Under the pieces are notes generated by a model. It worked only from the letters and a program-made list of their open reading frames with translations. It searched no databases and was not told the DNA's origin. A stretch of DNA of 64,000 nucleotides from Eledone cirrhosa (taxonomy: Eukaryota). The position numbers were made by a program, and so were the translations under genes. Shown piece by piece: positions 20,157 to 57,339 of this stretch; the first letter of the stretch is position 1; each line of letters opens with the position of its first letter. The stretch spans positions 375,658,001 to 375,722,000 of the forward strand of contig OZ024743.1 in assembly GCA_964016885.1 (NCBI GenBank), given 5' to 3'.

Positions 20157-21317
20157 GTAAAAATCATATAAATTTTATTTGCTTCTAGATGACTGAATAA
20201 GTGGTTATGGCTGTGCGCAGATTTGATTTTAGGAGCTATCTTCGATTTTTTTCAAAATAAAATGTCGATTTTTCTAGTACGAGTGGATTTTTTGTGTTCA
20301 TATAATATATAAACAAATCAATATTCTACTAATGTTGTCATCAACGGTGCACAGGAACACCAACGTTCGATTCCCGATAGTGTTTCTGTTCACTATTTTC
20401 CATCTCCAGGGGGTACTCTATCCGAATTATTCAACTATAATTCATAGTAATGCTTTGTTTCTAAAAAAAAAAAAAAGTTTTATTATCCTTCCTCTTCTCC
20501 CTCTTTCTATTTCTATTTCATCTTTTATTTTTCATTCTATCTTCTGATAAATCACTAGTGTCCTACTATATAAAGCTTTAAACTCAAATTTCTTCATTGT
20601 ACTGTGTCGTTTGCGTTGTTATTTCTGTTTCCTTTTTGCATCTCTCTCTCTATATATATATATATACACACATATATATATATATATATATATGCATAAG
20701 TTATATTTAATTTGTTGGATTCAACAAGCTTAAAGGTTTTATAACTGATATAAAGCACTCAACAAATTACTGGAGTAAATATTCAATAAATGGAAACTAT
20801 ATTTATAAAACCATAATTATTTTATTATATATATTCAAGGGCAACCAAGGCAATTTTGGTGCGCTTTCATCAGATAAAATACAAAATATGTTTTATAAAT
20901 GTTGACATACCCGTAGAAAAACAACCTTGACAGTTGAAGGTTCGCTGGATAACGAACCTTCAACTGTCAAGGTTGTTTTTCTACGGGTATGTCAACATTT
21001 ATAAAACATATTTTGTATTTTATCTGATGAAAGCGCACCAAAATTGCCTTGGTTGCCCTTGAAATATATATAATAAAATAATTATGGTTTATAAATATAG
21101 TTTCCATTTATTAATATATAGGGCGGTGGATTGGCAGTGTCGGTAGAGGGTCGGACGCCATGCTTTCCAGCATAGTTACGTCCCTTTACGATCTGAGTTC
21201 AAATCCCGCCGAGGTTGACTTTGCCTTTCATCCTTACGGGGTCGATAAAATAAAGTACCAGTAATGCACTGGGTAATTGCTGGCCTTGTGCCAAAAGTAG
21301 AAACAATTAATATATTG

Positions 21318-31700: not shown

Positions 31701-32501
31701 TCCCCCCCCCCAAAAAAAGGGGGGGGGGCTAGACTAATATTTTTTAACCAGCCTTGGAAGCTCTTCGGGATAGTACGTAGTGTCCCTATGATGATGGGGA
31801 CGACCTTGATCTCATGACAATTCCAAATCCTTTCAGTAACCACCTTAGATCCTGGTACCGGTTAATTTTCTCTTTCTCCTTTTCTTGCACTCTTGTGACA
31901 AAGGGGCAAGCTACATTTATAATCAAGCAAGATCTTTATTTCCGACAAAAACCACCAGGTCAGGCCTATTGTGTTCTAATCCTTTGTCTGTTTGTATCCT
32001 GAAATCCCACAGCATCTTCACCCGATCGCTTTCTATCACTGACTCTGGCTTATGCTCCTCATACCATTTCTCAGAATGAGGTAATTTGTACAGTTTGCAA
32101 TAATAATAATAATTGTTTCTTCTTTAGGCACAAGGCCAGCAATTAGAAATGGGGGAAAGTCGATTAAATCGATTCCAATGCATTACTGGTGCTTTATTCG
32201 ATCGACCCCGTAAAGATGAAAGGCAAAGCTAACCTCAGATCGTATAGTTACGCCCCCTTACGATATGAGTTCAAATCCCGCCAAGGTTAACTTTGCCATT
32301 CATCCTTACGGGGTCGATAAAATAAAGTACCAGTCACACACTGGGGTTGATTTAATCGGCTCCCCCCACCCCCCAAAAAGCATTGCTGGCCTTGTGCCTA
32401 AAGTAGAAACAATTATTATTATTATTATCATCAAACTCGGCTATGCTTGCATATGTGCATGTCTATACAAAATAATACATTCTCTCTTTCTTTCTCTTTC
32501 T

Positions 32502-32579
<78 letters not shown>

Positions 32580-35500
32580 CTTTTCCAGGTTGACAATGAC
32601 ATCGGCATGTCCTATGACACTTGAGAAATTCCCACTTGATACACAGATGTGTTCAGTTGTCATTAAAAGTTGTAAGTATTCTCCTCTTCACCACTACAGC
32701 AAGTACTCTCTCTCCTCTTCACCACTACATACAGCAAGTACTCTCTCTCCTCTTCACCACTACATACAGCAAGTACTCTCTCTCCTCTTCACCACTACAT
32801 ACAGGAAGTACTCTCTCTCCTCTTCACCACTACATACAGAAAGTACTCTCTCTCCTCTTCACCACTACATACAGGAAGTACTCTCTCTCCTCTTCACCAC
32901 TACATACAGGAAGTACTCTCTCTCCTCTTCACCACTACATACAGGAAGTACTCTCTCTCCTCTTCACCACTACATACAGCAAGTACTCTCTCTCCTCTTC
33001 AACACTACATACAGGAAGTACTCTCTCTCCTCTTCACCACTACATACAGGAAGTACTCTCTCTCCTCTTCAACACTACATACAGCAAGTACTCTCTCTCC
33101 TCTTCACCACTACATACAGGAAGTACTCTCTCTCCTCTTCACCACTACATACAGGAAGTACTCTCTCTCCTCTTCAACACTACATACAGGAAGTACTCTC
33201 TCTCCTCTTCAACACTACATACAGGAAGTACTCTCTCTCCTCTTCACCACTACATACAGGAAGTACTCTCTCTCCTCTTCAACACTACATACAGGAAGTA
33301 CTCTCTCTCCTCTTCAACACTACATACAGCAAGTACTCTCTCTCCTCTTCACCACTACATACAGGAAGTACTCTCTCTCCTCTTCACCACTACATACAGG
33401 AAGTACTCTCTCTCCTCTTCAACACTACATACAGCAAGTACTCTCTCTCCTCTTCAACACTACATACAGCAAGTACTCTCTCTCCTCTTCACCACTACAT
33501 ACAGGAAGTACTCTCTCTCCTCTTCAACACTACATACAGCAAGTACTCTCTCTCCTCTTCAACACTACATACAGGAAGTACTCTCTCTCCTCTTCAACAC
33601 TACATACAGGAAGTACTCTCTCTCCTCTTCACCACTACATACAGCAAGTACTCTCTCTCCTCTTCACCACTACAGCAAGTACTCTCTCTCCTCTTCACCA
33701 CTACATACAGGAAGTACTCTCTCTCCTCTTCAACACTACATACAGCAAGTACTCTCTCTCCTCTTCAACACTACATACAGGAAGTACTCTCTCTCCTCTT
33801 CAACACTACATACAGAAAGTACTCTCTCTCCTCTTCACCACTACATACAGCAAGTACTCTCTCTCCTCTTCACCACTACATACAGAAAGTACTCTCTCTC
33901 CTCTTCACCACTACATACAGAAAGTACTCTCTCTCCTCTTCACCACTACATACAGAAAGTACTCTCTCTCCTCTTCACCACTACATACAGAAAGTACTCT
34001 CTCTCCTCTTCACCACTACATACAGGAAGTACTCTCTCTCCTCTTCACCACTACATACAGCAAGTACTCTCTCTCCTCTTCACCACTACAGCAAGTACTC
34101 TCTCTCCTCTTCACCACTACATACAGGAAGTACTCTCTCTCCTCTTCACCACTACATACAGGAAGTACTCTCTCTCCTCTTCACCACTACATACAGAAAG
34201 TACTCTCTCTCCTCTTCACCACTACATACAGGAAGTACTCTCTCTCCTCTTCACCACTACATACAGCAAGTACTCTCTCTCCTCTTCAACACTACATACA
34301 GGAAGTACTCTCTCTCCTCTTCACCACTACATACAGGAAGTACTCTCTCTCCTCTTCAACACTACATACAGGAAGTACTCTCTCTCCTCTTCAACACTAC
34401 ATACAGCAAGTACTCTCTCTCCTCTTCACCACTACATACAGCAAGTACTCTCTCTCCTCTTCACCACTACATACAGGAAGTACTCTCTCTCCTCTTCAAC
34501 ACTACATACAGGAAGTACTCTCTCTCCTCTTCACCACTACAGCAAGTACTCTCTCTCCTCTTCACCACTACATACAGGAAGTACTCTCTCTCCTCTTCAA
34601 CACTACATACAGGAAGTACTCTCTCTCCTCTTCACCACTACATACAGCAAGTACTCTCTCTCCTCTTCAACACTACATACAGGAAGTACTCTCTCTCCTC
34701 TTCACCACTACATACAGCAAGTACTCTCTCTCCTCTTCACCACTACAGCAAGTACTCTCTCTCCTCTTCACCACTACATACAGGAAGTACTCTCTCTCTC
34801 CTCTTCAACACTACATACAGGAAGTACTCTCTCTCCTCTTCAACACTACATACAGGAAGTACTCTCTCTCCTCTTCAACACTACATACAGGAAGTACTCT
34901 CTCTCCTCTTCAACACTACATACAGGAAGTACTCTCTCTCCTCTTCAACACTACATACAGGAAGTACTCTCTCTCCTCTTCAACGCTACATACAGGAAGT
35001 ACTCTCTCTCCTCTTCACCACTACATACAGAAAGTACTCTCGGCTCCCAAATGACAGAGGCTGGAATAAGCGGGGGGAGGGTTAGAATAAGCGGGGGGGT
35101 TAGAATAAGCGGGGGTTAGAATAAGCGGGGGTGTAATAAGCGGGGGGGTTAGAATAAGCGGGGGGTTAGAATAAGCGGGCGGTTAGAATAAGCGGGGGGT
35201 TAGAATAAGCGGGGGGTTAGAATAAGCGGGGGTGCAATAAGCGGGGTGGTTAGAATAAGCGGGGGTTAGAATAAGCGGGGGTGCAATAAGCGGGGGGTTA
35301 GAATAAGCGGGGGTTAGAATAAGCGGGGGTTAGAATAAGCGGGGGTGCAATAAGCGGGGAGGTTAGAATAAGCGGGGGTTAGAATAAGCGGGGGGTTAGA
35401 ATAAGCGGGGGTTAGAATAAGCGGGGGGTTAGAATAAGCGGGGGGTTAGAATAAGCGGGGGTTAGAATAAGCGGGGGGTTAGAATAAGCGGGGGGTTAGA

Positions 35501-37066
35501 ATAAGCGGGGGGTTAGAATAAGCGGGGGTTAGAATAAGCGGGGGGTTAGAATAAGCGGGGGTTAGAATAAGCGGGGGTTAGAATAAGCGGGGGTTAGAAT
35601 AAGCGGGGGTTAGAATAAGCGGGGAGGTTAGAATAAGCGGGGGTTAGAATAAGCGGGGGGTTAGAATAAGCGGGGGTTAGAATAAGCGGGGTGGTTAGAA
35701 TAAGCGGGGGTTAGAATAAGCGGGGGGTTAGAATAAGCGGGGGTTAGAATAAGCGGGGGGTTAGAATAAGCGGGGGTTAGAATAAGCGGGGGGTTAGAAT
35801 AAGCGGGGGTTAGAATAAGCGGGGGTTAGAATAAGCGGGGGGTTAGAATAAGCGGGGGGTTAGAATAAGCGGGGGTGCAATAAGCGGGGGGTTAGAATAA
35901 GCGGGGTGTTATAATAAGCGGGGGTTAGAATAAGCGGGGGTTAGAATAAGCGGGGGGTTAGAATAAGCGGGGGTGCAATAAGCGGGGGGTAGAATAAGCG
36001 GGGGTTGTAATAAGCGGGGGGTAGAATAAGCGGGGGTTGTAATAAGCGGGGGGGTTAGAATAAGCGGGGGTTAGAATAAGCGGGGGGTTAGAATAAGCGG
36101 GGGTTAGAATAAGCGGGGGCTAGAATAAGCGGGGGTTGTAATAAGCGGGGGTTAGAATAAGCGGGGGTGCAATAAGCGGGGGTTTAGAATAAGCGGGGGT
36201 TGTAATAAGCGGGGGGGGGTAGAATAAGCGGGGGGGGGTTAGAATAAGCGGGGGTTGTAATAAGCGGGGGGGGGTAGAATAAGCGGGGGTTGTAATAAGC
36301 GGGGGGGGGTTAGAATAAGCGGGGGTTAGAATAAGCGGGGGGTTAGAATAAGCGGGGGGTTAGAATAAGCGGGGGTGCAATAAGCGGGGGGGTTAGAATA
36401 AGCGGGGTTTGTAATAAGCGGGGGGGAGAATAAGCGGGGGTTGTAATAAGCGGGGGGGGGTAGAATAAGCGGGGGTGCAATAAGCGGGGGTTTAGAAGAA
36501 TAAGCGGGGCTTAGAATAAGCGGGGGTTAGAATAAGCGGGGGTTAGAATAAGCGGGGGGTTAGAATAAGCGGGGTGTAGAATAAGCGGGGGGTAGAATAA
36601 GCGGGGGTTGTAATAAGCGGAGGGGGTTAGAATAAGCGGGGGTTAGAATAAGCTGGGGTTGTAATAAGCGGGGGGGGGTAGAATAAGCGGGGGTTAGAAT
36701 AAGCGGGGGTTGTAATAAGCGGGGGGGGGGTAGAATAAGCGGGGGGTTAGAATAAGCGGGGGTGCAATAAGCGGGGAAGTTGGAATAGGCGTGGGGTGGA
36801 AAACCGGTAATCTTTCAAGGTTGTCGCTGTTGATATTTTTGTAAGAACCAGAATTAGTTGTTTAGTTTACATCTTGAGACCTCTAATCCATCCTATTTAT
36901 TTTATAACGTATGGGATTTCTAATAATGTACTTTTTTGTCGTGTATAATGTTTTTTAATGTATAAAGAAAATTAATTGTCACAGAAATGCCTTGCCCGGA
37001 CTTGTGCCTCGGGAAGAAACATTCTAGGTGCAAAACCATGGTCATTGGTGACCGATGGGTGCCTTG

Positions 37067-37113
<47 letters not shown>

Positions 37114-39425
37114 TTTATTCTCACATTCAAATGTGTCATTGTTTACCTTGTTGCAGTTGTTTACACGCCAGATAATGTAGTCTTCCGCTGGGAACAAGGT
37201 AATGCCATTACATACAACAAGGAAATGGAAATGGCCCAGTTCGAAATCGGAGAAATTACAAACGCAGACTGCACCGGACACTTTGAAGGTATGGGTTTAT
37301 TATGCATGTTTGTATGTGTGGTGTGGAGCATGGGGAGCGTGTGTCTTTGTGTACGTGTCTGTGTGTGCATGTGAGCGTGTCTCAATTCTCGCCTTAATCG
37401 GGTTCATACAACACATGCCAGGAGAGCCCATCATCTCCATCGATGGGGAATGAAAGACAGCCCAGCATGTGACCGTGGGGATCCTGACCAGACAGTACTA
37501 CATGTTGTTCGGGATTGCCCCCTCCCCCCTCAGACGTTTTCCCGGCAGCCTTGAAGCACTCCATAATGCTGCAAATGACACTTTGGTCTAGCTCACCTGT
37601 CTTGACTCGCCTTTCTAACTATTGTACATGTCATACGACAAAAAAAAAGAATTCTCGTCTAGATCAACATCGCTTTTCACCCTTCTGGGATGGATGAAAT
37701 AAAGTATCACCTAAATACTGTACTCTATATAATTGACTTCCCACTTTTCCCCAAAACTGCTTGCTTTATGCTAATGATAGAAAGAACTAGACCACCCGTT
37801 ACCCGCTGGGGTCATGTTCACTTAATTTTTTCTTTTAAATCATGTTCACTTAAAATAATTTTTAAATAATTAAATATACAGACATGTATATAATGTAAAA
37901 TGAAATTTCAATCTACTCTCTCACAACCACTATCTCTTTCTCTCTATCGTTCTCTCTATTTATGAAGGTACCCAGAAAAAACCCCGAATCTCGGGACCCG
38001 TGCTCCGATTTACGCGAAACTTGTTTTATTCCATTCGTATTCCCATTTCAGGGGCAACTTCCTTTCAAAGTATGTTCCCCTTATGCGTCGTTTTGGCTGC
38101 ATCAAATTACAGACAAGCGCACAATCACCTAATTTTAGTAGTAGATTATCTTTTTATCTTATTTCTATCTTTTTCTTTCTCTTCAGAAAACAACTTTACC
38201 TGTATCCAAGCCGACATTTTCCTAAATCGGAAATTTGAATTTTTCCTACTCCACGTATTTATCCCTAGCACTTTGATTGTTGTCATTTCTTGGGTATCCT
38301 TTTGGTTACCAATTGATGCTGTTCCCGCCAGAATAGCACTGGGTAGTACAACCGTTCTAACAATGATCACGCAACGTCAAAGTACAGCCATATCTCTTCC
38401 TCCAGTGAGTTACATCAAAGCCATCGATGTGTGGACAGTATCGTGTTTGGTATTCGTGTTCGCGGCATTACTAGAGTACGCTTTGGTCAGCATCTACTCA
38501 AGACGAGAAGTTAAACGGATTATGATAAAACTTGTACCTTCAAAAGAAACAAAGGGAAGTTTTATCAAATCGAAATCAGTGAGTATTTCTTCTTCTCTCT
38601 TTTTTGCCAAAGAGTATGATACAGTAATATCTGCATAAATACTAAGTGTGTGACAGAAACTGCACCAACGTGTATAAATATATACACATTTAATATATAG
38701 CTATGTAAATATACCAGAAATTAAGAATTTTCCTGGAAATTGAAAACATGATAAACATCTTTCATCGATGTTCAGATCTAATGGGACCCTCGTCAGAAGA
38801 CCTATATATCATCCAATGAACCACAACGAAGCATGTATTTGATCGGTATATATACCCATTCACTCTTAGTAGTATTCTGAAATGGACATGTTAATTTGTA
38901 TTACTGCACGTGTTGGTAATTTATATATATATATAATTGTTTCTACTTTTGGCACAAGGCCAGTAATTACCCAGTACATTACTGGTACTTTATTTTATCG
39001 ACCCCGGCGGGATTTGAACTCAGAATAGGAAGGGCCGTAACTCTATGCGTCAAAGCATGACGTCCGACCCTCTCCCGATACTGCCAATCCACCGCCCTTA
39101 TATATAAATGCAATGTATATATAAGCAAGTATTGCAGCAAGAAAAATATAAACATCGATGAGAAGTGAGATTAGGGATTAATTGCTTTAACATATGTTTC
39201 TGTGTCTACCTTCACATACATGTGTGAGTGTGTTGAAGAGGTTCACTTTAAATTCAATATATATAGATAGAATAGATAGCTACTAGAGGCTCATCTAGAT
39301 AAGTAAACCTCTGTGACGAGGTTTCAAATATTGCAGGGTTTTGGTAGATATATATAAGTATATAGGTATATAGTACAACAATATAAAGGCTAAAAAAATT
39401 TAAAGCTCGATATAATTTTATAGGC

Positions 39426-39487
<62 letters not shown>

Positions 39488-42400
39488 AATTTAAAGTTAA
39501 CTTTAAAGTGAACCTATTCAACACACGTCTTTTCTTTTACTATGAAAAATTATCTAAGTTGAGCACATTTTTTAATGTATATAAACTGTGTGTGTGTGTA
39601 ATACATATAGTGAAAGATGGACAACAGATGCCTCAGTGAGGAATCAGACCCTGTATCCCTAGAATGTATATAAAGGATAAATAGTATGTTACAAATGTCC
39701 TTGCGCAAAAAAATATAGAAGTTCTTCATAGAATAATTAAATATATATTGTTACAGTATTGGTAGTTGAATTAATATTTCATGATTTACAGTTGCATATA
39801 CCGAACATCAAATATACATCAGAAATATTTATATGTTACAGAATTAGTGCTTGTAATGTCAACGGATGATTAGGTAGGCCCATAAAGCATATGGAGGGCG
39901 TAGAGTCTTGTTTCTGTAAGGAAATTAATAAATTCTTTAGACGAGATAATCATGATTGGGAATTCTAAAATGTTGTCATATTTTAAAGTGTTTAATCAAT
40001 TGTATTTATATGTTTTCATAATGCTTCTCGGCTTTGTAAATTCACTTTAATCTGATGATCTTTTGTTTTTAAAATACGCTAGAAGGAATTTTCTGAAGTG
40101 TCTAAATGTGTTGAAATTTTCAGACATCATATTTGTGAAGATTTTGTACTAAGAAATTATTTTCAATGCTACAGAAATTACAAGTTATCTCGTGCATGTA
40201 TGGCTTGCATTTTCAACAAGTGCAGACATTTAGAGAAATTCCTTCCGGCAGGAAAACCTCAGGACACGAGAGATTAAGTAGATTTTAAATACCAAGACAC
40301 ATCGTGAAAACAAGCACACAGTTCATATCTTTTAATATTGGAAAAATTTCAGAATTAACAAACTAAAATATCTCGTCGAATTGAATTAAACGACCGACCG
40401 AAAACAAAGAGTTTCACCACCTTACACTATACTATACATGACTGCTAATCAAAAGCCCTTACTAAACTGTATCCTTCAGCATGCGGAGATTCTTCCCTTC
40501 TCTAGTTTTGGTATAGACAAGAAGTTTTATATCATAATAACTGCATATATAGTTATTTGAATATGACAAAGCCGGCCATTAATCGCTCGTATACATGAAA
40601 CAGACTGGCTGATATGCAAATCTGGTTGATCAGTGGGTCTGCTGATATACAGATCTGACTGATCAGGCAGTCTGATAATATACAAGACAGGCCGATCAGT
40701 CACTGTATATTTTAGAAAATATCATATATTTTCACTAGTTCTGACAGTTGGAAGGTAAGCAGTATACTGTAGTGATGAAGGGTTACCCAGAAACATTCGT
40801 GTACATGCCAATACAAGAGCAAGAATGATGGGGGCCATTCTACTGACATGGCTTATAAGAGGCTGTCCATTCTGAGTTCAAATCACGCCGAGGTTAACTT
40901 TGCCTTTCATCCTTACGGGGTCGATAAAATAAAGTACCAGTAATGCACTGGGGTAATTGTTGGCCTTGTGCCAAAAGTAGAAACAATTATTATTAATATC
41001 GAGAAACTTAGATTACATTTATTGCATTCAGCCATGGAGAGCAATACACTATTTGTTTTATATATATACTAGCATTAAAGCCCGGCGTTGCTCGGGGTCA
41101 TTAAGTTACCAAAGTTAGGTTGCAGCACTTTTTTGTCTGCCAGGCACTGGGTGAATGAATTGCAGACCTGGAAGCATGAGCTGCGCCAGCAGTGACAATT
41201 GTAGTTTCGCCTATGGATATTATCTCTGTGCAAAAAAGTGTTGAAATTTATTGTTTCACAGTACTTGCGCAACACGCGAGTAGACGATGCCAGCCGAACA
41301 ACAGAGCTGCGATGGAGTTGTTCTGCATGGTTGTCTGTGTGTTTTCTAAATTTAAGACAGTAGGGAGGGTTGTGATATGAGGGAGAGTTAGCTGTTGTTT
41401 CTAGCAGGTTTAGTGACCTCATAGAGGATATGTGTTTTCTAAATTTAAGACAGTAGGGAGTGGTGTGATATGAGGGAGAGTTAGCTGCTGTTTCTAGCAG
41501 GTTTAGTGACCTCATAGAGGATATGTGTTTTCTAAATTTAAGACAGTAGGGAGTGGTGTGATATGAGGGAGAGTTAGCTGCTGTTTCTAGCAGGTTTAGT
41601 GACCTCATAGAAGATATGTTTTCTAAATTTAAGACAGTAGAGAGGGGTGTGATATGGGGGAGAGTTAGCTGCTGTTTCTAGCAGGTTTAGTGACCTCATA
41701 GAGGATATGTTTTCTAAATTTAAGACAGTAGGGAGGGGTGTGATATGAGGGAGAGTTAGCTGCTGTTTCTAGCAGGTTTAGTGACCTCATAGAAGATATG
41801 TTTTCTAAATTTAAGACAGTAGGGAGGGGTATGATATGGGGGAGAGTTAGCTGCTGTTTCTAGCAGGTTTAGTAACCTCATAGAGGATATGTGTTTTCTA
41901 AATTTAAGACAGTAGGGAGTGGTGTGATATGAGGGAGAGTTAGCTGCTGTTTCTAGCAGGTTTAGTAACCTCATAGAGGATATGTGTTTTCTAAATTTAA
42001 GACAGTAGGGAGTGGTGTGATATGAGGGAGAGTTAGCTGCTGTTTCTAGCAGGTTTAGTGACCTCATAGAGGATATTATTGTTTATCATCTATATATATA
42101 AAACTGACTGCACGCCTAACGAAATTTACAGATACATATATTTTAAATAAACTTATATAATTTTTGCTTTTTTTACGAAATATTTGCTAGTTTTACGTAG
42201 TCTTTAAATAGACTTGTTTTCAAGTAAAAATTATTGTGTTAATGTTATTTTAAACGCTGAGAAAGCCAGCGTAATTTTTTTAATTTTTGCACGCAGACGC
42301 TCAATGTAAACAGAACAAAGGGAAATAACTGATCACTTATGCTCAAAAATCGATACATTATATTCGATTTCGTCAGATAGGGCGGGTCAATTTGAAATAT

Positions 42401-42533
42401 TTTTTTCCGATGTCTTCGCTAGGGCTCAATGTACAAGTATAGCAATTTCGGTGCAATTCCGTGAGAGATTCTAAGAGGAGATGTGTGCCAAAAATCGATA
42501 GACAGACAGACAACCACAGTTTTATATATATAG

Positions 42534-42605
<72 letters not shown>

Positions 42606-42752
42606 GTATACACACATCATAGAAAATTGAAGCTTTCACCGTATTTTTTACTAAAGAAATTTTAGCCTGATAGTGGGGTTTAGAACCCTCTAAGAAATGG
42701 GTTCTATTTTCTATTCAAACTCGCTCACTAGTTTAAAACAAAGTATATATAT

Positions 42753-42831
<79 letters not shown>

Positions 42832-45800
42832 ATAATAATAATAATAATAATAAATGTGAAGACTAAAATCCAAAGAGGGCTCGATAAGGAGGATAAATAT
42901 ATATCAAATATATAAGGGACCCTAGAGCAAATATTTATTAAAATAACAGATTAATGTTTAAGCAAAGAATCGCTGCGTTCACCCTTAACGGGATCTTCTG
43001 AAACTAAAAGAAAAAAGAAAAATAAACCAATCTGTGAGCGCAGAAGTAAATATTCCGAAAAACGTTGCAACCGAAGGAAAACAGGAAGATGATACTTTGG
43101 TTCGTGAAGACGTTCCCTGGCAATGAACGGAAAAAAGCGAAGATAATACGTCGTTATGTGGATCGGTGAGAACAAATACACGCAAATACAAAATCACGTT
43201 TATTGTAAAATAGAGTCGTAAACTAATATTCTATTTCTCGACTTCGGAGTTAAGAATAATGTAAATAAATTAGTAGAACGAAAATGTCATAGGTTATTAA
43301 AATCATAAAAGTAATAATAATTAAATATATACATACACACATCTATATACGTACATACACATGCATACGCGAAAACACCCGCCATACATGCACGTACACA
43401 TAAACACGCGCACACATACATAAACCCGCACGACACATGTACCCGTACACATACGAACGTATACACCAAATACACATAAAAAATATGTGTGTATATAATT
43501 ATATAAACGTATATAAGTAACACATTAATTACGTATATCACGCACACACACACACACACACATACCTACAGGTAAATACGCATATGTTCACCAAACGTAC
43601 GTATACCAAATCTCAATGTATACATATACACACCTTACATACGTGCAAACACGCATACACGCATACACACACAAACACAAAATACACATATACACATAAC
43701 CCTATACACATATACCAGAATATATAATATATACACCTATAACAAATACAAGCATATATACATACGAGAAAGTATACGTACCTCCACAAAACATACAGGT
43801 AAGGTATACTTACCTATACAAATAAGTAACGGTATAAACATGAAATATACTTAGCTACCACATCAAGACGTAAATTATCCGCGTATTGTTCGTACTATCC
43901 GTTAGGGTATAATGTGGGGCTGTAATACAGGAAAGATTTATGCAACTTGTGTTTACAAGCCGAAATTGCCTCAGATTTTTTGTTTAAGATTTGATCATTA
44001 GCGTAGAGTATTTCCAAGGCTTCAGCGGTGCAAAGATCGCATGGTCTTTTATTTCCGTTATACGATCTAGCCCTAGCTAGGATCTCCCAGTGTAACCTAT
44101 ATTGGGTGTGGTTGTCTTTTAGACTCCAGATATAAGCTGAAAGTGACGTCATATTCCTTCTTAAAGGGTTAAGAAAAGAAAGAGTGTGCATGTAAAGACG
44201 CTGCTTGAATCTATTGGCGGTTAACCCTATGTAGACCCTACTAGACGTGGGTGTTTCGACCTTACATTTGTAGACAATGTTACTGGATAGGTAGCAGTCA
44301 ACACGATTCCTACAATTACAGTTAGTACTAGCTACAGGGTTGTACGTGTTCCTACGGCTAAGTAATTTACTAAATTTGAAGTAGTGATATTATGTGCAAA
44401 GTTAGGAGTAAGATATTTTAATGATATTTCTATTAAAAATGTTATTATATTTATGTGCTGAGGCGAAATGCTTCTTAATTAAGGAGAGAAGATCTTAGCT
44501 AATGGTGGGGCCACCTCCATATTATATGGTGGGTTATACCATATAATGCGTCGGGATCTATTTTTCCTAGGTTTATGCTCATACTTAGTATATGCTACCT
44601 TATCGACAATTCCACACCGAGCAAGAGCTTAATTGTAATATGTGGAATGGTCGGTGAAAATATGCTCGTTTGTAGATAGACGGGAAAGCCAGGTTCTTTG
44701 TTATGCTGGCAGGATGGTTAGAATGCTTACTGATGTAATTAAGCGTATCATTCGGCTTTCTATTCGGGTAGTGCAAGCCATTCGACAAATTGAGGGTAAC
44801 GTCGAGGTAGTTTACGACCGAGAGGTTGGTCTCAACATGTTTGGAGAGGTTGAAGCCTTTAAAGAAGGCTGTGAGTTCTTTTCTAAACCTGTCGCAAGCG
44901 CGGGGACCACACTTTGTCATGGTCAAAAGACCGGCATCGTGGTACAAACCACCGCCCACATTAGGTAATTCTTCCCTGATAGAGAAAAGAAGGAAAAGGC
45001 CGATAAGATCTGTAACCTCCGCCGAATCGCTGGTGCCCATACTCACGTCGAATGGGGTACTATTAGATTTTTTTATCCAAATAGAGTCGTCGAAATTAAT
45101 CACCGACTTACGGGCATTGAGGATGACATCAACTTCGAAATCCTTAATCACCGTGAGCGTTTTAGCGAAATTGATAGCTTTAAGAAATGGTAAAGTGATG
45201 GAGGAGTAGTAGTTATTGATGTCGAATTGGATAAAACAGCAATGTTCCTTGTTGTATATGCCATTGAACCAATCAATCACCGCGAAAGAATTATTCCACA
45301 GTGCAAGAGGGGCCAAGCTTCCACTTTCAAGTATAATTCTATCTAAAATCCTTTTACTAAGTCTACCTAAATCAGACTTCGTAGGGTTAATTAGTCGAAT
45401 AGAAGGATTGTTAGCGAAATTGGGTTTGTGATCCTTCAGAGTAAAGTGGGAAGAAATAGGATCCAGAGGTTCAGTCCGGTCCTGGATGTTGAGTTCAGAA
45501 GTGGTTTTAAACCCAGCATCGTTGATGTCATTAATGACACTCCAATTGGTTTTCCGGTAATCCTTAGTTACAGCATTATGTAGCAGTTGATGGTAAGTAC
45601 TTCGTTCCACTTGATATAGATTACCAGTTTTGTAGGAATGGACGTGCACGGCATTAGAATCCATAATAGCACGAATCCTATTCTTCAGGTCCTGATGGAA
45701 GGAATTGCTCCTGTTCCGAAATTTGATACTCCGTATGAGTTCCAAGACATCGTTTTCGAAGGGTAGCAAAGCTGAGCTACTCGGAGGGTTATTATAAGTT

Positions 45801-46258
45801 TTAAACCCAAATTTATCCTGTTTATTGTCCGCTTTTTCCTGGTTATCGAAATAAAAGGCACGCCAACGCAACCTTTTAAGGAACGAATCCGTTTTTTTAT
45901 AACAAGTTTTAGATATGTCTTCCTGCTAGGTACGGGTATGTTCTTTGTAGAAATATTCAGGTGTTGTTTCTGCATGATGAATATAAGTCAATAGAGTGCT
46001 CAACCGAGAGAGCCAAATAGTAATAATAATAAATGTTGCCAATATACCGTATGTTTAATTAAAAACATTTAGAAGACTATTCGCTATCATTTTTAAAGTA
46101 GTGACTATGTCACTTACTTATATTTTCGGCAAAGGCTGGGAGAATGGCTGGCAGCTGTTTCTCGCTGACAGCTGTCAGCCATTCTCCCAGCCTTTGGTAT
46201 ATTGCCAAATATACTATACATACATTCATGTATACATAACTATTTCAGAGCACCAATA

Positions 46259-46350
<92 letters not shown>

Positions 46351-46584
46351 CAAAAGGTAATCAGAAATAACAATAAAATCAGTACAGTATATGGAAGGAA
46401 TATATTAGTTAGAACGCTTGAAATAGCAGGAAGAGGATCTTAACGTTTCCGACGCTAGTCCTTCACCAGAAGAAAGAATGAATATATATATATATATATG
46501 GTCGTTTTGGAAACCTCAACACTTGTTGAGGTTTCCAAAACGACTATTTTTTCTATTCCACAATGCTGCAAGCAAACTTTAACA

Positions 46585-46629
<45 letters not shown>

Positions 46630-46867
46630 AATTGCATTATTTCATGGTTTCATTCGAATCTTTGATTTTCTTTCTCATTTTTATCTTTTTCTTCTCCAGA
46701 TAACATGGAGTAACGGTACCAGCGACGGTGTCCCCGTTGATGTTCGAACATCAGAACCTAAGTCTAAATTAAAAGCCAAACGGATCGATGTTATATCTCG
46801 AGTAGCATTCCCATCGTGCTTTTTCACGTTTGTAACACTCTACTGGGTGTTCTATTCACAAAAGTGA
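20065..46867 (+). CDS. Cys-loop ligand-gated anion channel subunit (glycine receptor / GluCl-like), 8 coding exons, ~408 aa
   Basis: join(20065-20156,26001-26065,28726-28793,30383-30609,32589-32671,37157-37288,38187-38578,46700-46867) = 1227 nt, all GT-AG and phase-consistent. It encodes a signal peptide, WTDPRL, IWVPDLYFANEK, the Cys-loop CPMTLEKFPLDTQMC, a loop-C Cys pair, M1-M4 and the PAR motif. Confidence 0.92.
20695..21119. mobile_element. Fold-back PLE-type element with hammerhead motifs (intron 1)
   Basis: Arms ~20785-20944 and ~20952-21111. Hammerhead tattttat-CTGATGA-stem II-GAAA-TATATATA-ataaaata at 21016-21080. Same family as 55317-55770. Confidence 0.8.
21121..21310 (+). mobile_element. 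tRNA-derived SINE, near full length
   Basis: A-box-like TGGCAGTGTCGG, B-box GAGTTCAAATCC, conserved core and an AT-rich tail. Confidence 0.85.
22690..22984. mobile_element. hAT-type MITE inserted into a SINE
   Basis: Imperfect TIRs CAGGGTCGGATTTA / TAAATCTAACCCTG, with an 8-bp TSD ATAGTACC at 22682-22689 and 22985-22992. Confidence 0.85.
24570..25262 (-). repeat. 103-bp x6 tandem array derived from the terminus of the same hAT MITE family
   Basis: Units start CAGGGTTGGATT at 24570, 24673, 24776, 24879, 24982 and 25085 and match the reverse complement of 22862-22984. The sequence then continues into the MITE body. Confidence 0.9.
25540..25668. ncRNA. Palindrome of two back-to-back minimal hammerhead motifs
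   Basis: + strand: ggctttc-CTGATGA-TTTC(catt)GAAT-GAAAC-AG..CT-GTA-gaagcc (25604-25655). The - strand copy has CTGACGA (25554-25601). Confidence 0.72.
26001..26065 (+). CDS. Coding exon 2 (SKVIQNLTDGYDSGISPHFDL)
   Basis: tttatttcag|g ... ttgg|gtgag; phases 2/1; matches the N-terminal helix and YD..I.P motif. Confidence 0.85.
28154..28650 (-). mobile_element. Three tandem SINE copies
   Basis: Head-to-tail repeats of the main SINE. Confidence 0.85.
28726..28793 (+). CDS. Coding exon 3 (DVPTEVKVHIYISSFDSIRESAM)
   Basis: ttacag| ... atg|gtgag; 68 nt; typical beta1 strand. Confidence 0.9.
29715..30390 (+). repeat. 33-bp minisatellite (~20 units) made from the exon-4 splice acceptor
   Basis: Unit TCTAG|GACTATACCATTTTTTGTATTTCTACTA; the last unit runs into GACTATACAATG (exon 4). 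Confidence 0.95.
30383..30609 (+). CDS. Coding exon 4 (DYTMNFIITQKWTDPRL...IWVPDLYFANEK...GTVVYRA)
   Basis: Loops D, A and E of the Cys-loop ligand-binding domain; ag|gtaaat donor. Confidence 0.95.
30977..31574 (+). mobile_element. Putative Helitron/Helentron-type non-autonomous element with an internal 57-bp x3 repeat
   Basis: Starts ACTAGCAGAAAAACCAC..GTGGTTTTCTGCTAG (hairpin) and ends ...ttattatagtttagat. Layout resembles 37787-38146 and 41068-42535. Confidence 0.5.
31620..32100 (-). mobile_element. R4/Dong-type non-LTR retrotransposon 3' fragment (REL endonuclease), decayed
   Basis: Reads LWDFRIQTD, KEKEKINRYQDL and IWNCHEIKVVPIIIGTL across frames; adjacent to (TAA)n. Confidence 0.75.
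32589..32671 (+). CDS. Coding exon 5, Cys-loop (LTMTSACPMTLEKFPLDTQMCSVVIKS)
   Basis: 83-nt exon, ttccag| ... t|gtaagt, encoding C-x13-C. Confidence 0.96.
32674..35040 (+). repeat. 35-bp minisatellite (~67 units) starting at the exon-5 donor
   Basis: Unit AAGTACTCTCTCTCCTCTTCA(C/A)CACTACATACAG(C/G/A), with occasional 31-bp variants. Confidence 0.95.
35062..36800 (+). repeat. G-rich 16-17-bp minisatellite (TTAGAATAAGCGGGGG), roughly 100 units
   Basis: Read directly; variants include TGCAATAAGC and TTGTAATAAGC. Confidence 0.95.
37157..37288 (+). CDS. Coding exon 6 (FVYTPDNVVFRW...MAQFEI...DCTGHFE)
   Basis: ttgcag| ... g|gtatgg; loop B, loop F and the first loop-C Cys. Confidence 0.93.
37787..38146 (+). 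mobile_element. Putative Helitron/Helentron-type non-autonomous element
   Basis: ACTAGACCACCCG..GGGGT start and ...acagacaagc...ttttagtagtagat end; lies 40 bp upstream of exon 7. Confidence 0.45.
38187..38578 (+). CDS. Coding exon 7 (loop C end, M1, M2, M3, start of the intracellular loop)
   Basis: FTCIQADIFLNR, FIPSTLIVVISWVSFWL, AVPARIALGSTTVLTM, LPPVSYIKAIDVW, VFAALLEYALV; tca|gtgagt donor. Confidence 0.96.
41068..42535 (+). mobile_element. Putative Helitron/Helentron-type non-autonomous element
   Basis: 5' ACTAGCATTAAAGCCCGGCGTTGCTCGGG (a related start is at 50907) and 3' GACAGACAGAC...TTTTATATATATAGAT. Confidence 0.55.
41338..42075. repeat. 91-93-bp x8 tandem array
   Basis: Unit GTTTTCTAAATTTAAGACAGTAGGGAG...GCTGTTTCTAGCAGGTTTAGTGACCTCATAGAGGATATGT. 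Confidence 0.92.
42855..46200 (-). mobile_element. Penelope-like retroelement (Naiad-like), near full ORF with frameshifts, antisense in intron 7
   Basis: RT: FIQFDINNYYSSI, FDVSMGTSDSAEV, GLYHDAGL, VNYLDVTL. GIY-YIG: CNCRNRVDC, IVYKCKV..VYIGLT..FKQR. C-terminal CDLC..E...LNKKSE...CKH. Element boundaries are approximate. Confidence 0.85.
46700..46867 (+). CDS. Coding exon 8 (M4 and stop: KAKRIDVISRVAFPSCFFTFVTLYWVFYSQK*)
   Basis: cttctccag| acceptor in phase 0; ID..SR..FP......YW is the M4 signature. The ORF track missed this exon. Confidence 0.93.
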   Translation: MTWSNGTSDGVPVDVRTSEPKSKLKAKRIDVISRVAFPSCFFTFVTLYWVFYSQK

Positions 46868-50712: not shown

Positions 50713-51581
50713 ATTAGTAGCAGTATACTTGTTTTTCTTGCTCGATATCAAATGGAGGTTTTAGAATAACTTGTTGAACGTTTTACTTAACAACAACAGC
50801 CACGTCAAGATTTAGAAAAAAGAATATTTTCAATCAAAATTTTTTGGTGAAAAAGGAATCTAGAGTTTGAAGATTTTCTAACATCGTTAAAGTCATGTTA
50901 GTAAATACTAGCAGAATGGCCCGGCGTTGCTCTAGGGTTCATATATATTTCATATCCTAAACGGACGGTAGTCCGTTTAGTAATATTGTTGTGGTCGTGT
51001 TTTCGTTGGCAATCGTCTATTTACGACAGTACAGCGCGGCTCTACTTTATTTAACTGAGATAAAACTTATATGAGCATGAACAGTACGTAGATCATTACG
51101 CATCTTTTGGCTTAAAAATCTAGAAATTTGGTCCAGCGGGAAAAAGTTTATAATCAAAGTTTGCTGATAAATCTTGTGTTCAAGTGAGTGAGTAGTAAGC
51201 GTGACGCTAGAGGAGGTAATCCAGAAATGACGAATTTTTTTCGGCGGAACTCTTGTGATTGTGATTACGTTAGTCAAATGTAGTCAATTTGCATGGGTTT
51301 TTGTCCATTCTAAAAAGTTAAAATGATAAAGTATTACTACTATATAACTTACATTTATTGTTGTAACACCATTGAAATGCACAAGTTTCACCAATTCACT
51401 ATTATGCACTAATCATCTCAAATGCATTCATGATTTACTAGCTTTGTCATTAAGCCAGTTGCCTCAACTAGATTGCAATTATACTCAAAAGAACTTTAAA
51501 ATGTCAATCACTTGTCAGTAATTCACTATGATGATTTAATTATTAGATAGTTGTTGCTTGCATTGCCTTAAAAAATAGTAG

Positions 51582-52676
51582 ACCAGATAGAAAAATGCGT
51601 ACAGCAAAAAAAAGTAATATTGTTGGAATATAAACCTTTAAAAATACAGGACAAGAAACTAAAATAAAACTTTAAAAGAATAGGACAAGAAACTAAGATA
51701 AAACTTTAAAGAATTGGACAAGAAATAAAAGATTTTACAATAATATTAGTGGCAACATTTTTTTATTCGTTTCCTGTGCTATGCCCCAGTATCTTCTTGA
51801 TTAGTGCATAATAATTGTCATGCTCTCATTGTGCGTTGCCCCTGAGCGGTTGGTTCTGGTTGGGGTTGGTTGGCTGAGCAGTTCTGCTCCGTCAGAATGA
51901 CCATTGCAAGAAGAATTGGCCGATGCAGCGGCAGGTCTCCTCCAAGAATGCACTTCTGGTCCCGCAACACCAGACGAAGATGGAGAAGACGACCGGGACA
52001 AGATGTCGACTCTGACCACCGACTACGGCACCTCCCTCAACCACCGGTCCTCCCTCCCTCTGTCCCGTCATCCCTCCAGTCCTCCTGCTCCCCCTTCCTG
52101 TACCAGAAAGCTGTGGCACGCATTCATCTGGACTGCCGGACTTGAACTCAAGGACAAGATGCAAGGAGAAGATGGACGGGTTGGTCAAGATCAAGGATGA
52201 GCGGGACGACAAGACCGTCCGCTGCTGCTCAAGATCTGTGCTCATGGGCCCATGGGTCCATTCACATGATGCATGACACATGAGGCGTGTCGCCGAATGA
52301 TGAAATAGGGGTATGGTTATGGCCCAATTGGTGTTCAAACCAGGATCAAATGATCCCTCTGGTCTGACGACGACCTCTGAATGTGGAACCCAGAGCCTAT
52401 GAATGTGGAACTCGATTTTTTACCAATAAAAATTTTGCCACTAATATTATTGTAAAATTTTTTATTTCTTGTCCAATTCTTTTAAAGTTTTATCTTAGTT
52501 TCTTGTCCTATTCTTTTAAAGTTTTATCTTAGTTTCTTGTCCTATTCTTTTAAAGTTTTATCTTAGTTTCTTGTCCTATTCTTTTAAAGTTTTATCTTAG
52601 TTTCTTGTCCTGTATTTTTAAAGGTTTATATTCCAACAATATTACTTTTTTTTGCTGTACGCATTTTTCTATCTGG
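51582..52676. mobile_element. Element with long terminal inverted repeats containing 34-bp subrepeats and a GC-richer core
   Basis: 51582-51755 is the reverse complement of 52435-52676 except for subrepeat copy number. Confidence 0.75.
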
Positions 52677-52756
52677 TGTATTTATCCTTATCGAGCCTCG
52701 AGAAATAAATACGTTTGTTTAAAATATTATGCTCCATAGCTAGGCTACAATTCTAC

Positions 52757-52895
52757 TGTATGTATGTATGTACATGTGTGTGTGAATAATTTATGTTCAC
52801 ATACATGTGTACACACACACATATGTATATACATATATATATATATATGTGTGTGTGTATGTATATGTATGTATATGTATATATATGTATGTATG

Positions 52896-52972
<77 letters not shown>

Positions 52973-53033
52973 GCATGTATATATATGTATGTATATATAT
53001 GCATGTATATATATGCATGTATATATATGTATG

Positions 53034-53096
<63 letters not shown>

Positions 53097-53112
53097 GTAT
53101 ATATATATATGT

Positions 53113-53174
<62 letters not shown>

Positions 53175-53211
53175 GTATGTATGTATATATATGTATGTAT
53201 ATATGTGTATG

Positions 53212-53298
<87 letters not shown>

Positions 53299-53341
53299 GT
53301 ATGTATGTATATATATGTATGTATATGTATGTATGTATATG

Positions 53342-53398
<57 letters not shown>

Positions 53399-53568
53399 GT
53401 GTATGTATATGTATGTATGTATGTATGTATATATATATATGTATGTATGTATATATATATATATATGTATGTATATATATATATGTATGTATATATATAT
53501 GCATGTATATATATATATGTATGTATATATATATATGTATGTATATATATATATATATGTATGTATGT

Positions 53569-53609
<41 letters not shown>

Positions 53610-53679
53610 TATGTATGTATGTATATATATATATATGTATGTATGTGTATATATATATATGTATGTGTGTATATATATG

Positions 53680-53725
<46 letters not shown>

Positions 53726-53827
53726 TGTATGTATATATATATGTATGTATATATATATATGTATGTATATATATATATGTATGTATATATATATATGTAT
53801 GTATATATATATATGTATGTATGTATA

Positions 53828-53860
<33 letters not shown>

Positions 53861-53871
53861 ATATGCATATG

Positions 53872-53918
<47 letters not shown>

Positions 53919-54177
53919 GTATGTATGTATGTATATATGTGTATGTATATGTATGTATGTATGTATGTATATATATATATGTATGTATGTATATATATAT
54001 ATATGTATGTATATATATATATGTATGTATATATATATGTATGTATATATATATATATGTATGTATGTATATATATATATATGTATATATATATGTATCT
54101 ATATATATATATGTATGTATGTATATATATATATATGTATGTATGTGTGTATATATATGTATGTGTGTATATATATG

Positions 54178-54237
<60 letters not shown>

Positions 54238-54277
54238 TATGTATGTATATATATATATGTATGTATATATATGTTTG

Positions 54278-54309
<32 letters not shown>

Positions 54310-54560
54310 TGTATGTATATATATGTATATATATGTATGTATGTATGTGTATGTATATATGTATGTGTATGTATGTATATATATATATATGTATGTATAT
54401 ATATATGTATGTATATATATATATGTATGTATATATATATATAGGTATGTATATATATATATGTGTATGTATATATATATATGTATGTATATGTATGTAT
54501 GTATGTATATATATATATGTATGTATATATATATATGTATGTATATATATATATGTATGT

Positions 54561-54601
<41 letters not shown>

Positions 54602-54760
54602 TATGTATGTATATATATATATGTATGTATGTATGTATATATTTATGTATATATATATATGTATATATATATATGTATATATATATATGTATATATATAT
54701 ATGTATATATATAAATGTATATATATATATATGTATATATATATATGTATATATATGTAG
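52757..54760. repeat. Degenerate (TATG/TA)n array
   Basis: Read directly; source of the long Y/I/H/M/C ORF artefacts. Confidence 0.95.
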
Positions 54761-54846
54761 GAGGTGAGTTTTATTGTAGTACAATAAAGCAATGCAGATA
54801 TCGGATAAGAAGCACTCTACAGTTTGTAGGACTGGAGTATACATAA

Positions 54847-55172
54847 TATATAAGAACAAAAGATAGTTAAAAGAGTTCCATGTATTTTATTATGCGCATT
54901 TCAAAAACAAATATCATCATGCAATAACATTTGTGTTTTCATCAGATAAAATAGGAAGACATGATATGAAGGTTAAAATCAGTTGTGGATAGTTCAGTTT
55001 TTGATATGTTGATTTAAAACTGCACTATTCACAAGTGTTTTTTTAAACTTCATATCATGTCTTCCTATTTTATCTGATGAAAACACAAATATTATTGCAT
55101 GATGATATTTGTTTTTGAAATGCGCATAATAAAATACATGGAACTCTTTTAACCATCTTTTGTTCTTATATA
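54847..55172. mobile_element. Fold-back element with hammerhead motifs
   Basis: Arms 54847-54971 and 55048-55172; tattttat-CTGATGA-long stem II-GAAA-TGCGCA-TA-ataaaata at 55066-55136. Confidence 0.82.
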
Positions 55173-55231
55173 TGTATATATGTATATATATATATATGTA
55201 TATATATATATGTATATATATATATGTATAT

Positions 55232-55309
<78 letters not shown>

Positions 55310-55316
55310 GTATAAT

Positions 55317-55770
55317 ATGATATTAAATAAATGGAAACTATATTTATAAAACCATATTTATTTCGTTATATATATTTCAGGGATATCATATTAACAATAT
55401 GTTATGCCTTCTTCAGACAAAATACAATATAAACAGTCTTATAAATAAATATATACGACATACCTTTCAATCACCTTGCATTTGGGAGGTTGATTTGCCA
55501 AATCAACCTCCCAAATGCAAGGTGATTGAAAGGTATGTCGTATATATTTATTTATAAGACTGTTTATATTGTATTTTGTCTGAAGAAGGCATAACATATT
55601 GTTAATATGATATCCCTGAAATATATATAACGAAATAAATATGGTTTTATAAATATAGTTTCCATTTATTTAATATCATAAATATACTCCAAATACTTGT
55701 TGAGTGCTTTTATATCAGTTATAAATATTTACTCGTTGTTAACCCAACAATTTAAATATAACTTTCCATA
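55317..55770. mobile_element. Fold-back element with hammerhead motifs (family of 20695-21119)
   Basis: Near-perfect ~180-bp arms centred at ~55498; tattttgt-CTGAAGA-AGG..CCT-GAAA-TATATATA-acgaaata at 55572-55637. Confidence 0.82.
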
Positions 55771-55794
55771 TATATATGTATATACATATATATG

Positions 55795-55825
<31 letters not shown>

Positions 55826-55861
55826 GTATATATGTATATATATGTATGTATATATGTATGA

Positions 55862-55909
<48 letters not shown>

Positions 55910-56002
55910 GTATATATATATATATGTATATATATGTATGTATATATATATATGTATATATATGTATGTATATATATATATATTTATATATATATATGTA
56001 TG

Positions 56003-56033
<31 letters not shown>

Positions 56034-56076
56034 GTATGTATGTATATATATATGTATATATATATATATGTATATA

Positions 56077-56125
<49 letters not shown>

Positions 56126-56371
56126 GTATGTCTATATATATATGTATATATATATATGTATATATATATATATGTATATATATATGTATATATATATGTA
56201 TATATATATATGTATGTATATATATATGTATATATATATATATATGTATGTATATGTATGTATATATATATGTATGTATATATATATGTATATATATATA
56301 TGTATATATATATATGTATATATATATGTATATATATATATGTATATATATATATGTATATATATATATGT

Positions 56372-56412
<41 letters not shown>

Positions 56413-56512
56413 TGTGTATATATATATGTATATATATATATGTATATATATGTATGTATATATATGTGTATATATATATATATGTGTATATATATATGTG
56501 TATATATATATG

Positions 56513-56547
<35 letters not shown>

Positions 56548-56767
56548 GTATATATATGTATGTATGTATATATATGTATGTATATGTATGTATGTATATG
56601 TATGTATGTATATGTATGTATGTATATATATATGTATATATATATATGTATATGTATATATGTATATATGTATATATTTATATATATATATGTATAAATA
56701 AATATATGTATATATATATATGTATATATATATATATGTATATGTATATGTATATATGTATATGTAT

Positions 56768-56799
<32 letters not shown>

Positions 56800-56840
56800 G
56801 TATATATATATGTATATATATATATATGTATATATGTATA

Positions 56841-56922
<82 letters not shown>

Positions 56923-56952
56923 TATATATGTATATATATGTATATATGTATA

Positions 56953-57017
<65 letters not shown>

Positions 57018-57033
57018 ATATATATATTTATAT
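55770..57033. repeat. Degenerate (TA/TATG)n array
   Basis: Read directly from the sequence. Confidence 0.95.
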
Positions 57034-57339
57034 AAAATATCTCTACATGTTCAATATCCGATATAATTAACGTACTTTATCTAAATATATTTATTAAATT
57101 TATATTTACTTTCATTCTTTTCAAAGCCTCCTATACTTACCATAACAAAGTCGTCTGCTAAATGATTGTTTCCACAACTAGCAATGGGACTACTGTATGT
57201 CTCGGTATATAAGTAACACTTATTTTGAAAAAAAATATCAATATTGGTGTTTATTACGTATTAAATAAACTAACCAATATATGCTTATTTATATAGAGCT
57301 ATATTGTACATGCCATTTGTAAAGAATACATATATCATT

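Follow-up and report, generated by a model that had tools for sequence, protein, structure and literature searches.

Long-helix hammerhead motifs in Eledone cirrhosa and their assignment to pseudo-LTRs of Hydra-clade Penelope-like elements

Hammerhead motifs and two-armed insertions in the window

The window analyzed here is a stretch of 64,000 nucleotides from Eledone cirrhosa (contig OZ024743.1, positions 375,658,001 to 375,722,000). It contains exons of a Cys-loop ligand-gated ion channel gene at 30400-46865 on the plus strand (Pfam Neur_chan_memb, E 3e-26), with the TM4 exon near 46,800. Inside the channel gene lies a broken Hydra-like Penelope open reading frame (ORF) at 43895-45925 on the minus strand, about 40% identical to that of the family B elements described below. 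Judged by its motifs, a fragment at 14696-15331 (+) resembles the end of another Penelope ORF, and a fragment at 169-1895 (-) is presumably an endonuclease-type LINE. A TA/TATG microsatellite extends from 52740 to 57070 and has received one insertion of family A and one of family B.

A descriptor scan of both strands identified three type I hammerhead folds on the plus strand, at 21016-21080 (family E), 55066-55136 (family A) and 55572-55637 (family B). All three share an 8-bp stem I, the core sequences CUGANGA and GAAA, an 8-nt palindromic stem III and the cleavage triplet AUA, which confirms the positions, the common core and the triplet reported in an earlier note on this DNA. A covariance model, the inputs of which included the window's own motifs, recovered the same three sites. 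Two further hits of the descriptor scan, at 55424-55359 and 54953-54883, are antisense, and a sixth motif at 20881-20818 on the minus strand, which lacks one A of GAAA, was found by the covariance model. The five descriptor hits compare with a mean of 0.05 hits under loose and 0 under strict settings in 60 approximate dinucleotide block shuffles. At neither of the window's two other Penelope fragments did the covariance model find a copy of the fold.

The family A motif is composed of stem I (55066-55073 paired with 55129-55136), the core (55074-55080), a helix II of 36 nt (55081-55116) followed by GAA, and the palindromic helix III (55120-55127), with a predicted cut after AUA at 55128. Its helix II has 15 predicted base pairs, with a C·U mismatch after the first three. 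In family B, helix II (55587-55617, 31 nt) has 12 predicted pairs with a C·C mismatch after three, helix III is located at 55621-55628 and the predicted cut follows AUA at 55629. In family E, helix II (21031-21060, 30 nt) has 10 predicted pairs, again with a C·C mismatch after three, and the predicted cut follows AUA at 21072. Each motif has a mirror copy on the minus strand. That of family B (55359-55424) is identical, that of family A (54883-54953, left arm) differs in one variant base of helix II, and that of family E (20818-20881), the copy with the incomplete GAAA, is predicted to be dead.

Stem I differs between the motifs by one A-U pair replaced by G-C and one U-A pair replaced by U·G, as described earlier, and the G·U intermediate of this change occurs in sister subfamilies. 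Stem III is indeed palindromic in all three motifs, over 8 nt each. Stem II, which the earlier note took to differ completely between motifs while still pairing in each, does pair in each, but the stems are homologous and have the common base RRR-C-RYA ... URY-Y-YYY. What the earlier reading overlooked is that each motif belongs to one arm of an inverted repeat and is part of a very abundant mobile element.

Three local Rfam scans at the motif sites returned no hammerhead family at E values up to 10, and no hammerhead was present among the 150 of 284 matches listed for the whole window. Rfam probably misses these hammerheads because of the long helix II.

The arms are part of inverted repeats, each arm 133-182 bp long, located in (TA)n microsatellite sequence. 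The family A insertion (54755-55173) has both ends in TA repeats, and its arms, 54846-54978 and 55041-55173, are 98% complementary. The left arm alone carries a tail, at 54755-54845 on the minus strand, which extends about 90 nt beyond the short 3' end. The family B insertion (55316-55769) has fully complementary arms (55316-55497 and 55499-55680, 100%) and a tail of about 89 nt at 55681-55769 (+), on the right arm only. This right arm is 99% identical to the pseudo-LTRs of a near full-length element at locus L069, and in tandem elements of family B the ORF begins about 50 nt past the tail. The family E insertion (20693-21120) contains an inverted repeat at about 20776-21120 (96%), with the tail at 20693-20775 on the left arm, and its pseudo-LTR is about 70% identical to that of family B.

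An element of the form ACTCC...GAGTG, common to the families, was seen in the tails at 55681-55769 and 54755-54845 and at many other loci. The tails also contain a small hairpin, with a TTGT/ACAA core in families A, B, D and E, 11-16 nt before the distal end. Element and hairpin are a candidate start signal for reverse transcription. A common short repeat at 21121-21290, which we take to be SINE-like, directly abuts the end of the family E right arm and also follows pseudo-LTR ends at L100, L145, L162 and L201. Other long inverted repeats in the window, at 16787-17561, 14010-14228, 13310-13480, 51579-52680, 25534-25675 and 8985-9138, are possibly two-armed insertions of other families.

Parent elements and the origin of the short copies

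The element at L069 is organized as pseudo-LTR, ORF, 3' UTR and pseudo-LTR, with the 55572 motif in both repeats. A search with its reverse transcriptase (RT) returned 118 scored matches at 95-100%, of which 44, counted by eye, had an open frame of at least 744 amino acids without a stop in the match. Twenty of these 44 loci were examined, and 18 gave a total of 19 intact ORFs of 737 amino acids, with none at L277 and L284 under the filter used. All 19 intact family B ORFs, which encode RT and GIY-YIG domains, are followed by the 55572-type hammerhead 1.3-1.4 kb past the stop codon. A second hammerhead is located 244-245 nt before the ATG in 13 of the 19, and an inverted hammerhead was found upstream in 10. 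The family B unit measures about 3.8 kb, including a 1.3-kb 3' UTR. At L292, two intact family B elements lie in divergent orientation, each with both pseudo-LTR hammerheads. Family A is linked to an RT/endonuclease sequence about 50% identical to that of family B (at L067 and others), and at L272 an E-type copy is followed by the start of an ORF 73% identical to that of B.

The 737-aa protein of family B displays the motifs YRDD and IIY...YVG, a C-terminal GIY-YIG domain with a single Cys between GIY and YIG, RWR and DKT, a CxCX5C linker, and CxxC and CxH flanking the conserved E and N, but no CCHH. DKT, CxCX5C and CxxC were also identified in family A. Pfam gave no match for seven Penelope-like element (PLE) proteins, and the clade was assigned from protein motifs compared by eye with the published Hydra alignment. 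The marks described for the Hydra clade are RW[K/R], DKT, CxCX5C, CxxC, CxH and a (TA)n target (Craig et al. 2021, PMC8557442). In our set, the 3' ends of nearly all of 101 family A copies run into TA and in some cases CA repeats. Judged from these sequence features, and for families A and E by way of ORF pieces, the window motifs are assigned to pseudo-LTR pieces of Hydra-clade PLEs. A Naiad element was ruled out by domain order. Naiad PLEs have an N-terminal endonuclease, DKA and no canonical hammerhead, whereas the elements here have a C-terminal endonuclease, DKT and a hammerhead.

The group that carries the window motifs is young and very abundant. With the three arms as queries, 366, 811 and 1,752 candidates were obtained, the best 40 at 96-100%. 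In the genome of 3.0 Gb, a pattern of the 3' half of the motif (22 places) matched 52,432 times, with 0 matches for the control, and a pattern of the 5' half (20 places) matched 80,633 times, with 3 for the control.

The ends of the short copies were analyzed in 101 family A copies, selected by the 34 nt 3' of the cut site (the first 100 of 7,382 matches plus one neighbor). The 3' ends fall at two sites, from +45 to +61 in 53 copies and at +135/136 in 47, with a single copy ending at +71. At the other side, 23 copies begin at -124/-125, and only one begins at the cut site, whereas the remaining 100 span it. This result suggests that cut linear RNA is not a main template, and cut RNA was rejected as the template of the short copies, which would derive from uncut or re-ligated RNA.

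The 5' hotspot lies just outside a hairpin in all three families (window 55003-55045, 55499-55530 and 20953-20980) and is possibly a transcription start. In family A it coincides with the palindrome CATATG, which is the center of many two-armed insertions.

Exactly one arm is tailed in 79 of 87 inverted pairs (44 of 47 in family A and 35 of 40 in families B, E and D), where about half would be expected. Of 47 pairs, 35 have eight or more readable diagnostic sites, and in these the two arms differ at 16 of 454 sites as compared to 24.6% after shuffling; a count by alignment gave 45 of 673 sites as compared to 28%. The arms have common subfamily variants, suggesting that both are usually made from one template. 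The few differences led us to reject, for most pairs, an origin of the arms from two RNAs joined by helix III. Among all pairs, the family A pair in the window is the most discordant, as 3 of its 16 sites differ, and the one-template origin may not hold for it. A single master palindrome was also rejected, since the arms lie anywhere from 100 to 4,584 nt apart and haplotypes differ among palindromes with an identical center.

These observations would be explained if reverse transcription starts at either of two sites about 45 and 135 nt past the cut site of an uncut or re-ligated RNA and probably runs to a preferred stop about 125 nt upstream. The same template would then serve for the second arm, and the resulting palindrome would have a tail on one arm only. 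Two 3' ends, one template and uncut RNA fit the Penelope element of the anole, for which two internal start sites and an unprocessed template have been described (Frangieh et al. 2024, PMC11167929).

Variation and covariation of the fold

We collected 293 motifs from 272 loci, a sample biased to the families used as queries. Helix II is 26-36 nt long in this set, apart from two longer hits that are mis-parses, and its base always consists of three pairs, a C·Y mismatch and three pairs. On the 3' side of the mismatch, 292 of the 293 motifs have C or U. The C on the 5' side was demanded by the collecting script, although it was seen elsewhere without that demand, with one exception. These hammerheads have no canonical loop 2, and the C·Y mismatch after three pairs is nearly invariant.

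Helix III occurs mainly as ATGCGCAT (n=124), ATATATAT (n=113) and ATATGTAT (n=28, self-complementary through G·U), in addition to rarer forms. H17 is A in 289 of the 293 motifs, and the free position N7 varies (CTGA[T/A/C/G]GA). The G10.1-C11.1 pair is usual, not absolute, in type I hammerheads. Here it is not kept, with A-U in 252 motifs, G·U in 29, A·C in 10 and G-C in 2, and the subfamily with A·C nevertheless spread. Two intact copies have U·U at this position, which is frequent there in the published Hydra rows (PMC8557442) and has been reported as tolerated (PMC3088659).

Covariation was assessed in 24 family representatives picked by eye, including some sequences met only once. The positions of the catalytic core are all invariant in this set, and 97.5% of the 432 stem cells pair, with 36 G·U as compared to 5 A·C. 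Changes on both sides were observed in 8 of 18 pairs, a number reached by 3 of 500 shuffles. The covariation score of 0.367 was reached by none of 500 shuffles, and slid controls gave at most 0.185. The count of pair types was not above that of shuffles (379 of 500). In a tree built on 110 nt of flanks only, helix II pairs 2, 3, 5 and 6 show double changes in more than one clade. Sequence identity is highest in the core (0.97), followed by stem I (0.88), proximal helix II (0.67), the flanks (0.61) and distal helix II (0.47).

Covariation, proposed in the earlier note as a check of the fold, is thus strong across the 24 representatives by the shuffle test. The suggestion that selection acts on the fold holds for the lineage of transposing element families, because of the covariation and the substitution pattern across families, but not for the three window loci, which are predicted to be dead-end insertions.

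Hammerheads of other types were seen at several of the collected loci. L036 has one with a 48-nt helix II and the palindromic helix III ACCATGGT, in two copies on one strand (cores at 53 and 711, +) 658 nt apart, which could be a tandem unit. Further families have a 14-nt helix II (L019, L038, L054, L068 and L069) or a helix II of 26-27 nt (L005, L034 and L094), with ACTAGT or ACCACTGGT as helix III and GU-type sites.

Comparison with known systems and the role of the ribozyme

The elements agree with published Hydra-clade PLEs such as Hydra-1_Obim in the single ORF for RT and C-terminal GIY-YIG, the (TA)n target, the type I hammerhead near the 3' end and the inverted, 5'-truncated copies with a tail at one end (PMC8557442). 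By our own count of the 26 published Hydra rows in File S2 of that study, one of which is from an octopus, helix II is 12-26 nt long as compared to 26-36 nt here, and the site is GUH in all 26 rows, whereas here it is AUA. Thus, the earlier remark that 30-36 nt is long was correct, since this exceeds the published Hydra-clade set, but the minimal hammerhead was not the right standard of comparison. A helix III that is an even palindrome of 8 nt and the conserved C·Y mismatch also set the motifs apart from the published Hydra rows. Two spike-moss PLE-X candidates with a longer helix II are listed in the same table and marked there as deviating (PMC8557442). The tail is about 85-90 nt here and 30-40 nt in published Hydra elements, and the unit of about 3.8 kb exceeds the size of generally less than 3 kb in this clade, which is a tendency and not a strict criterion (PMC8557442).

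The metazoan PLE hammerheads described by Cervera and De la Pena (2014, PMC4209133) are similar in their location in pseudo-LTRs, an enlarged helix II, a palindromic helix III suited to dimers, families full of covariation, thousands of dispersed copies and opposite-strand pairs 100-700 bp apart. They differ in helix II (6-8 bp, as compared to 10-15 predicted here), in helix I (4-5 bp, as compared to 8) and in a conserved G10.1-C11.1 pair. The Anolis Poseidon element (PMC11167929) shares with the elements here two internal RT start sites that define the tail, an AT-rich target, a hammerhead near the junction of pseudo-LTR and ORF, and a mainly uncut RNA template. However, it belongs to a different clade, its tail is 30-40 nt long and its ORF starts inside the ribozyme, unlike here, where about 245 nt separate the start of the ribozyme from the ATG. 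A type I hammerhead in a short non-coding unit is likewise found in animal non-LTR retrozymes (Cervera and de la Pena 2020, PMC7229834; Li et al. 2026, 10.64898/2026.07.22.740005), which stem from PLE pseudo-LTRs or are related to them. Their units are arranged head to tail in tandem, with canonical loop contacts, and have circular RNAs. The copies here, unlike retrozymes, are solitary or inverted and near-identical to the ends of coding elements. Dimeric PLE hammerheads were reportedly studied by Lünse et al. in 2017.

Earlier publications already describe hammerheads in Penelope pseudo-LTRs, a palindromic helix III and pairs on opposite strands. New details are the helix II of 26-36 nt, the AUA site, the tail of about 85-90 nt, the C·Y mismatch and the copy number. 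Since class, context and inverted arrangement were known, the advance is one of detail and not of kind. In the literature accessible without subscription we found no description of the long-helix AUA variant, although the supplements of PMC4209133 may hold examples of a longer helix II.

Hammerhead numbering and the general role of contacts between stems I and II are established. We consider it likely that the motifs are pseudo-LTR hammerheads of Hydra-clade PLEs that act as slow self-cutting ribozymes and need a partner copy or the element protein. The location in the pseudo-LTRs, the covarying fold and the insertion anatomy are observed, and self-cutting after AUA would be the predicted activity. 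In a transcript of the form pseudo-LTR, ORF, pseudo-LTR, the two hammerheads would join by way of their palindromic helix III and cleave behind AUA. Tandem transcripts would thereby be reduced to unit length, possibly as a step toward circularization. The long helix II would be tolerated beyond its conserved base of 3 bp, C·Y and 3 bp, which probably carries the contact with stem I. At the host locus, the antisense arm would sequester the fold and mask the ribozyme, leaving the window copies inert.

Several observations stand against this reading, namely the single copy of 101 that begins at the cut, the loss of G10.1-C11.1 and the weak, AU-rich helix III. Closing helix III within one molecule is predicted to cost about 2.9 kcal/mol, and the predicted self-duplex of AUAUAUAU is weak (-3.2 kcal/mol, as compared to -10.5 kcal/mol for AUGCGCAU). 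Family A is predicted to cofold with an 8-bp intermolecular helix III (-10.5 kcal/mol), but no helix III dimer was formed in the cofolds of families B and E. Of four triplets tested in one viroid hammerhead, AUA was cut most slowly (PMC1636495), and for the anole Penelope element, insertion in vitro did not require the ribozyme, with no RNA-seq ends reported at the ribozyme site (PMC11167929).

A more specific possibility, which we regard as tentative and rather doubtful, is that the motifs are a distinct hammerhead subclass, in which the C·Y mismatch replaces loop 2 as the stem I contact and AUA is cut only upon helix III pairing of two pseudo-LTRs. If true, about 80,000 copies and dozens of intact parents would be a natural system for testing one-template insertion with two start sites, as well as ribozyme gating.

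It is also conceivable, but unlikely, that the fold is retained because it signals protein binding or folding, for RNP assembly and for placing the two RT start sites, and rarely or never cuts. The 100 of 101 copies that span the cut site are consistent with such a signal, although circular RNA would also yield copies of this kind. The non-canonical 10.1-11.1 pair, AUA and the weak helix III fit as well, as do the dispensable cleavage in another PLE in vitro (PMC11167929) and the poor cutting of PLE hammerheads in vitro (PMC4209133). However, the core is invariant in the 24 representatives while N7 varies, and H17 is nearly always A, and a pure binding site would not require exactly such a core pattern.

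Much less probable is that the short copies amplify as independent units, as a non-autonomous retrozyme or a palindromic MITE-like element. In favor of this, many copies measure just 170-260 nt and have a common 5' end (23 of 101 at -124/-125), and the center of the family B palindrome recurs at other loci. Against this, the arms are 99% identical to the pseudo-LTRs of coding elements, arm spacing ranges over 100-4,584 nt, and palindromes with the same center differ in haplotype. Among the first 100 of the 80,633 matches, taken consecutively, 28 divergent opposite-strand pairs were spaced by no more than 5.1 kb, 14 of these by 500 nt or less. Same-strand neighbors at 500 nt or less numbered only three, each combining two different variants, and head-to-tail arrays were absent from this set.

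Co-option of the hammerheads by the host, for example in ending or destabilizing the adjacent ion channel transcript, is very improbable. Two copies do lie on the same strand as the channel gene, some 8 kb downstream of its final coding exon (stop near 46,865), but they are young copies among tens of thousands, and upstream of each lies its own antisense arm, with which complete pairing is predicted. Whole palindromes fold at a predicted -215 to -282 kcal/mol, as compared to about -5 to -6 kcal/mol for the hammerhead, so that a host transcript is predicted to form a long duplex and not a ribozyme. Just as implausible is a neutral relic with covariation from shared ancestry and transition bias: the changes are almost all transitions, with few independent events per pair (2-4), and related sequences can beat shuffles, but four helix II pairs underwent double changes repeatedly, in separate clades, G·U outnumbers A·C by 36 to 5 although one transition gives either, and no more than 3 of 500 shuffles reached eight doubly changed pairs.

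What hammerheads do in Penelope-like elements is described as an open question (PMC8557442, PMC11167929). The group supplies many intact, near-identical parents and a graded series of covarying ribozymes. It also provides a clean insertion record, with two 3' ends, one tail per pair and arms from one template. Finally, tens of thousands of such motifs in one genome are missed by the Rfam models.
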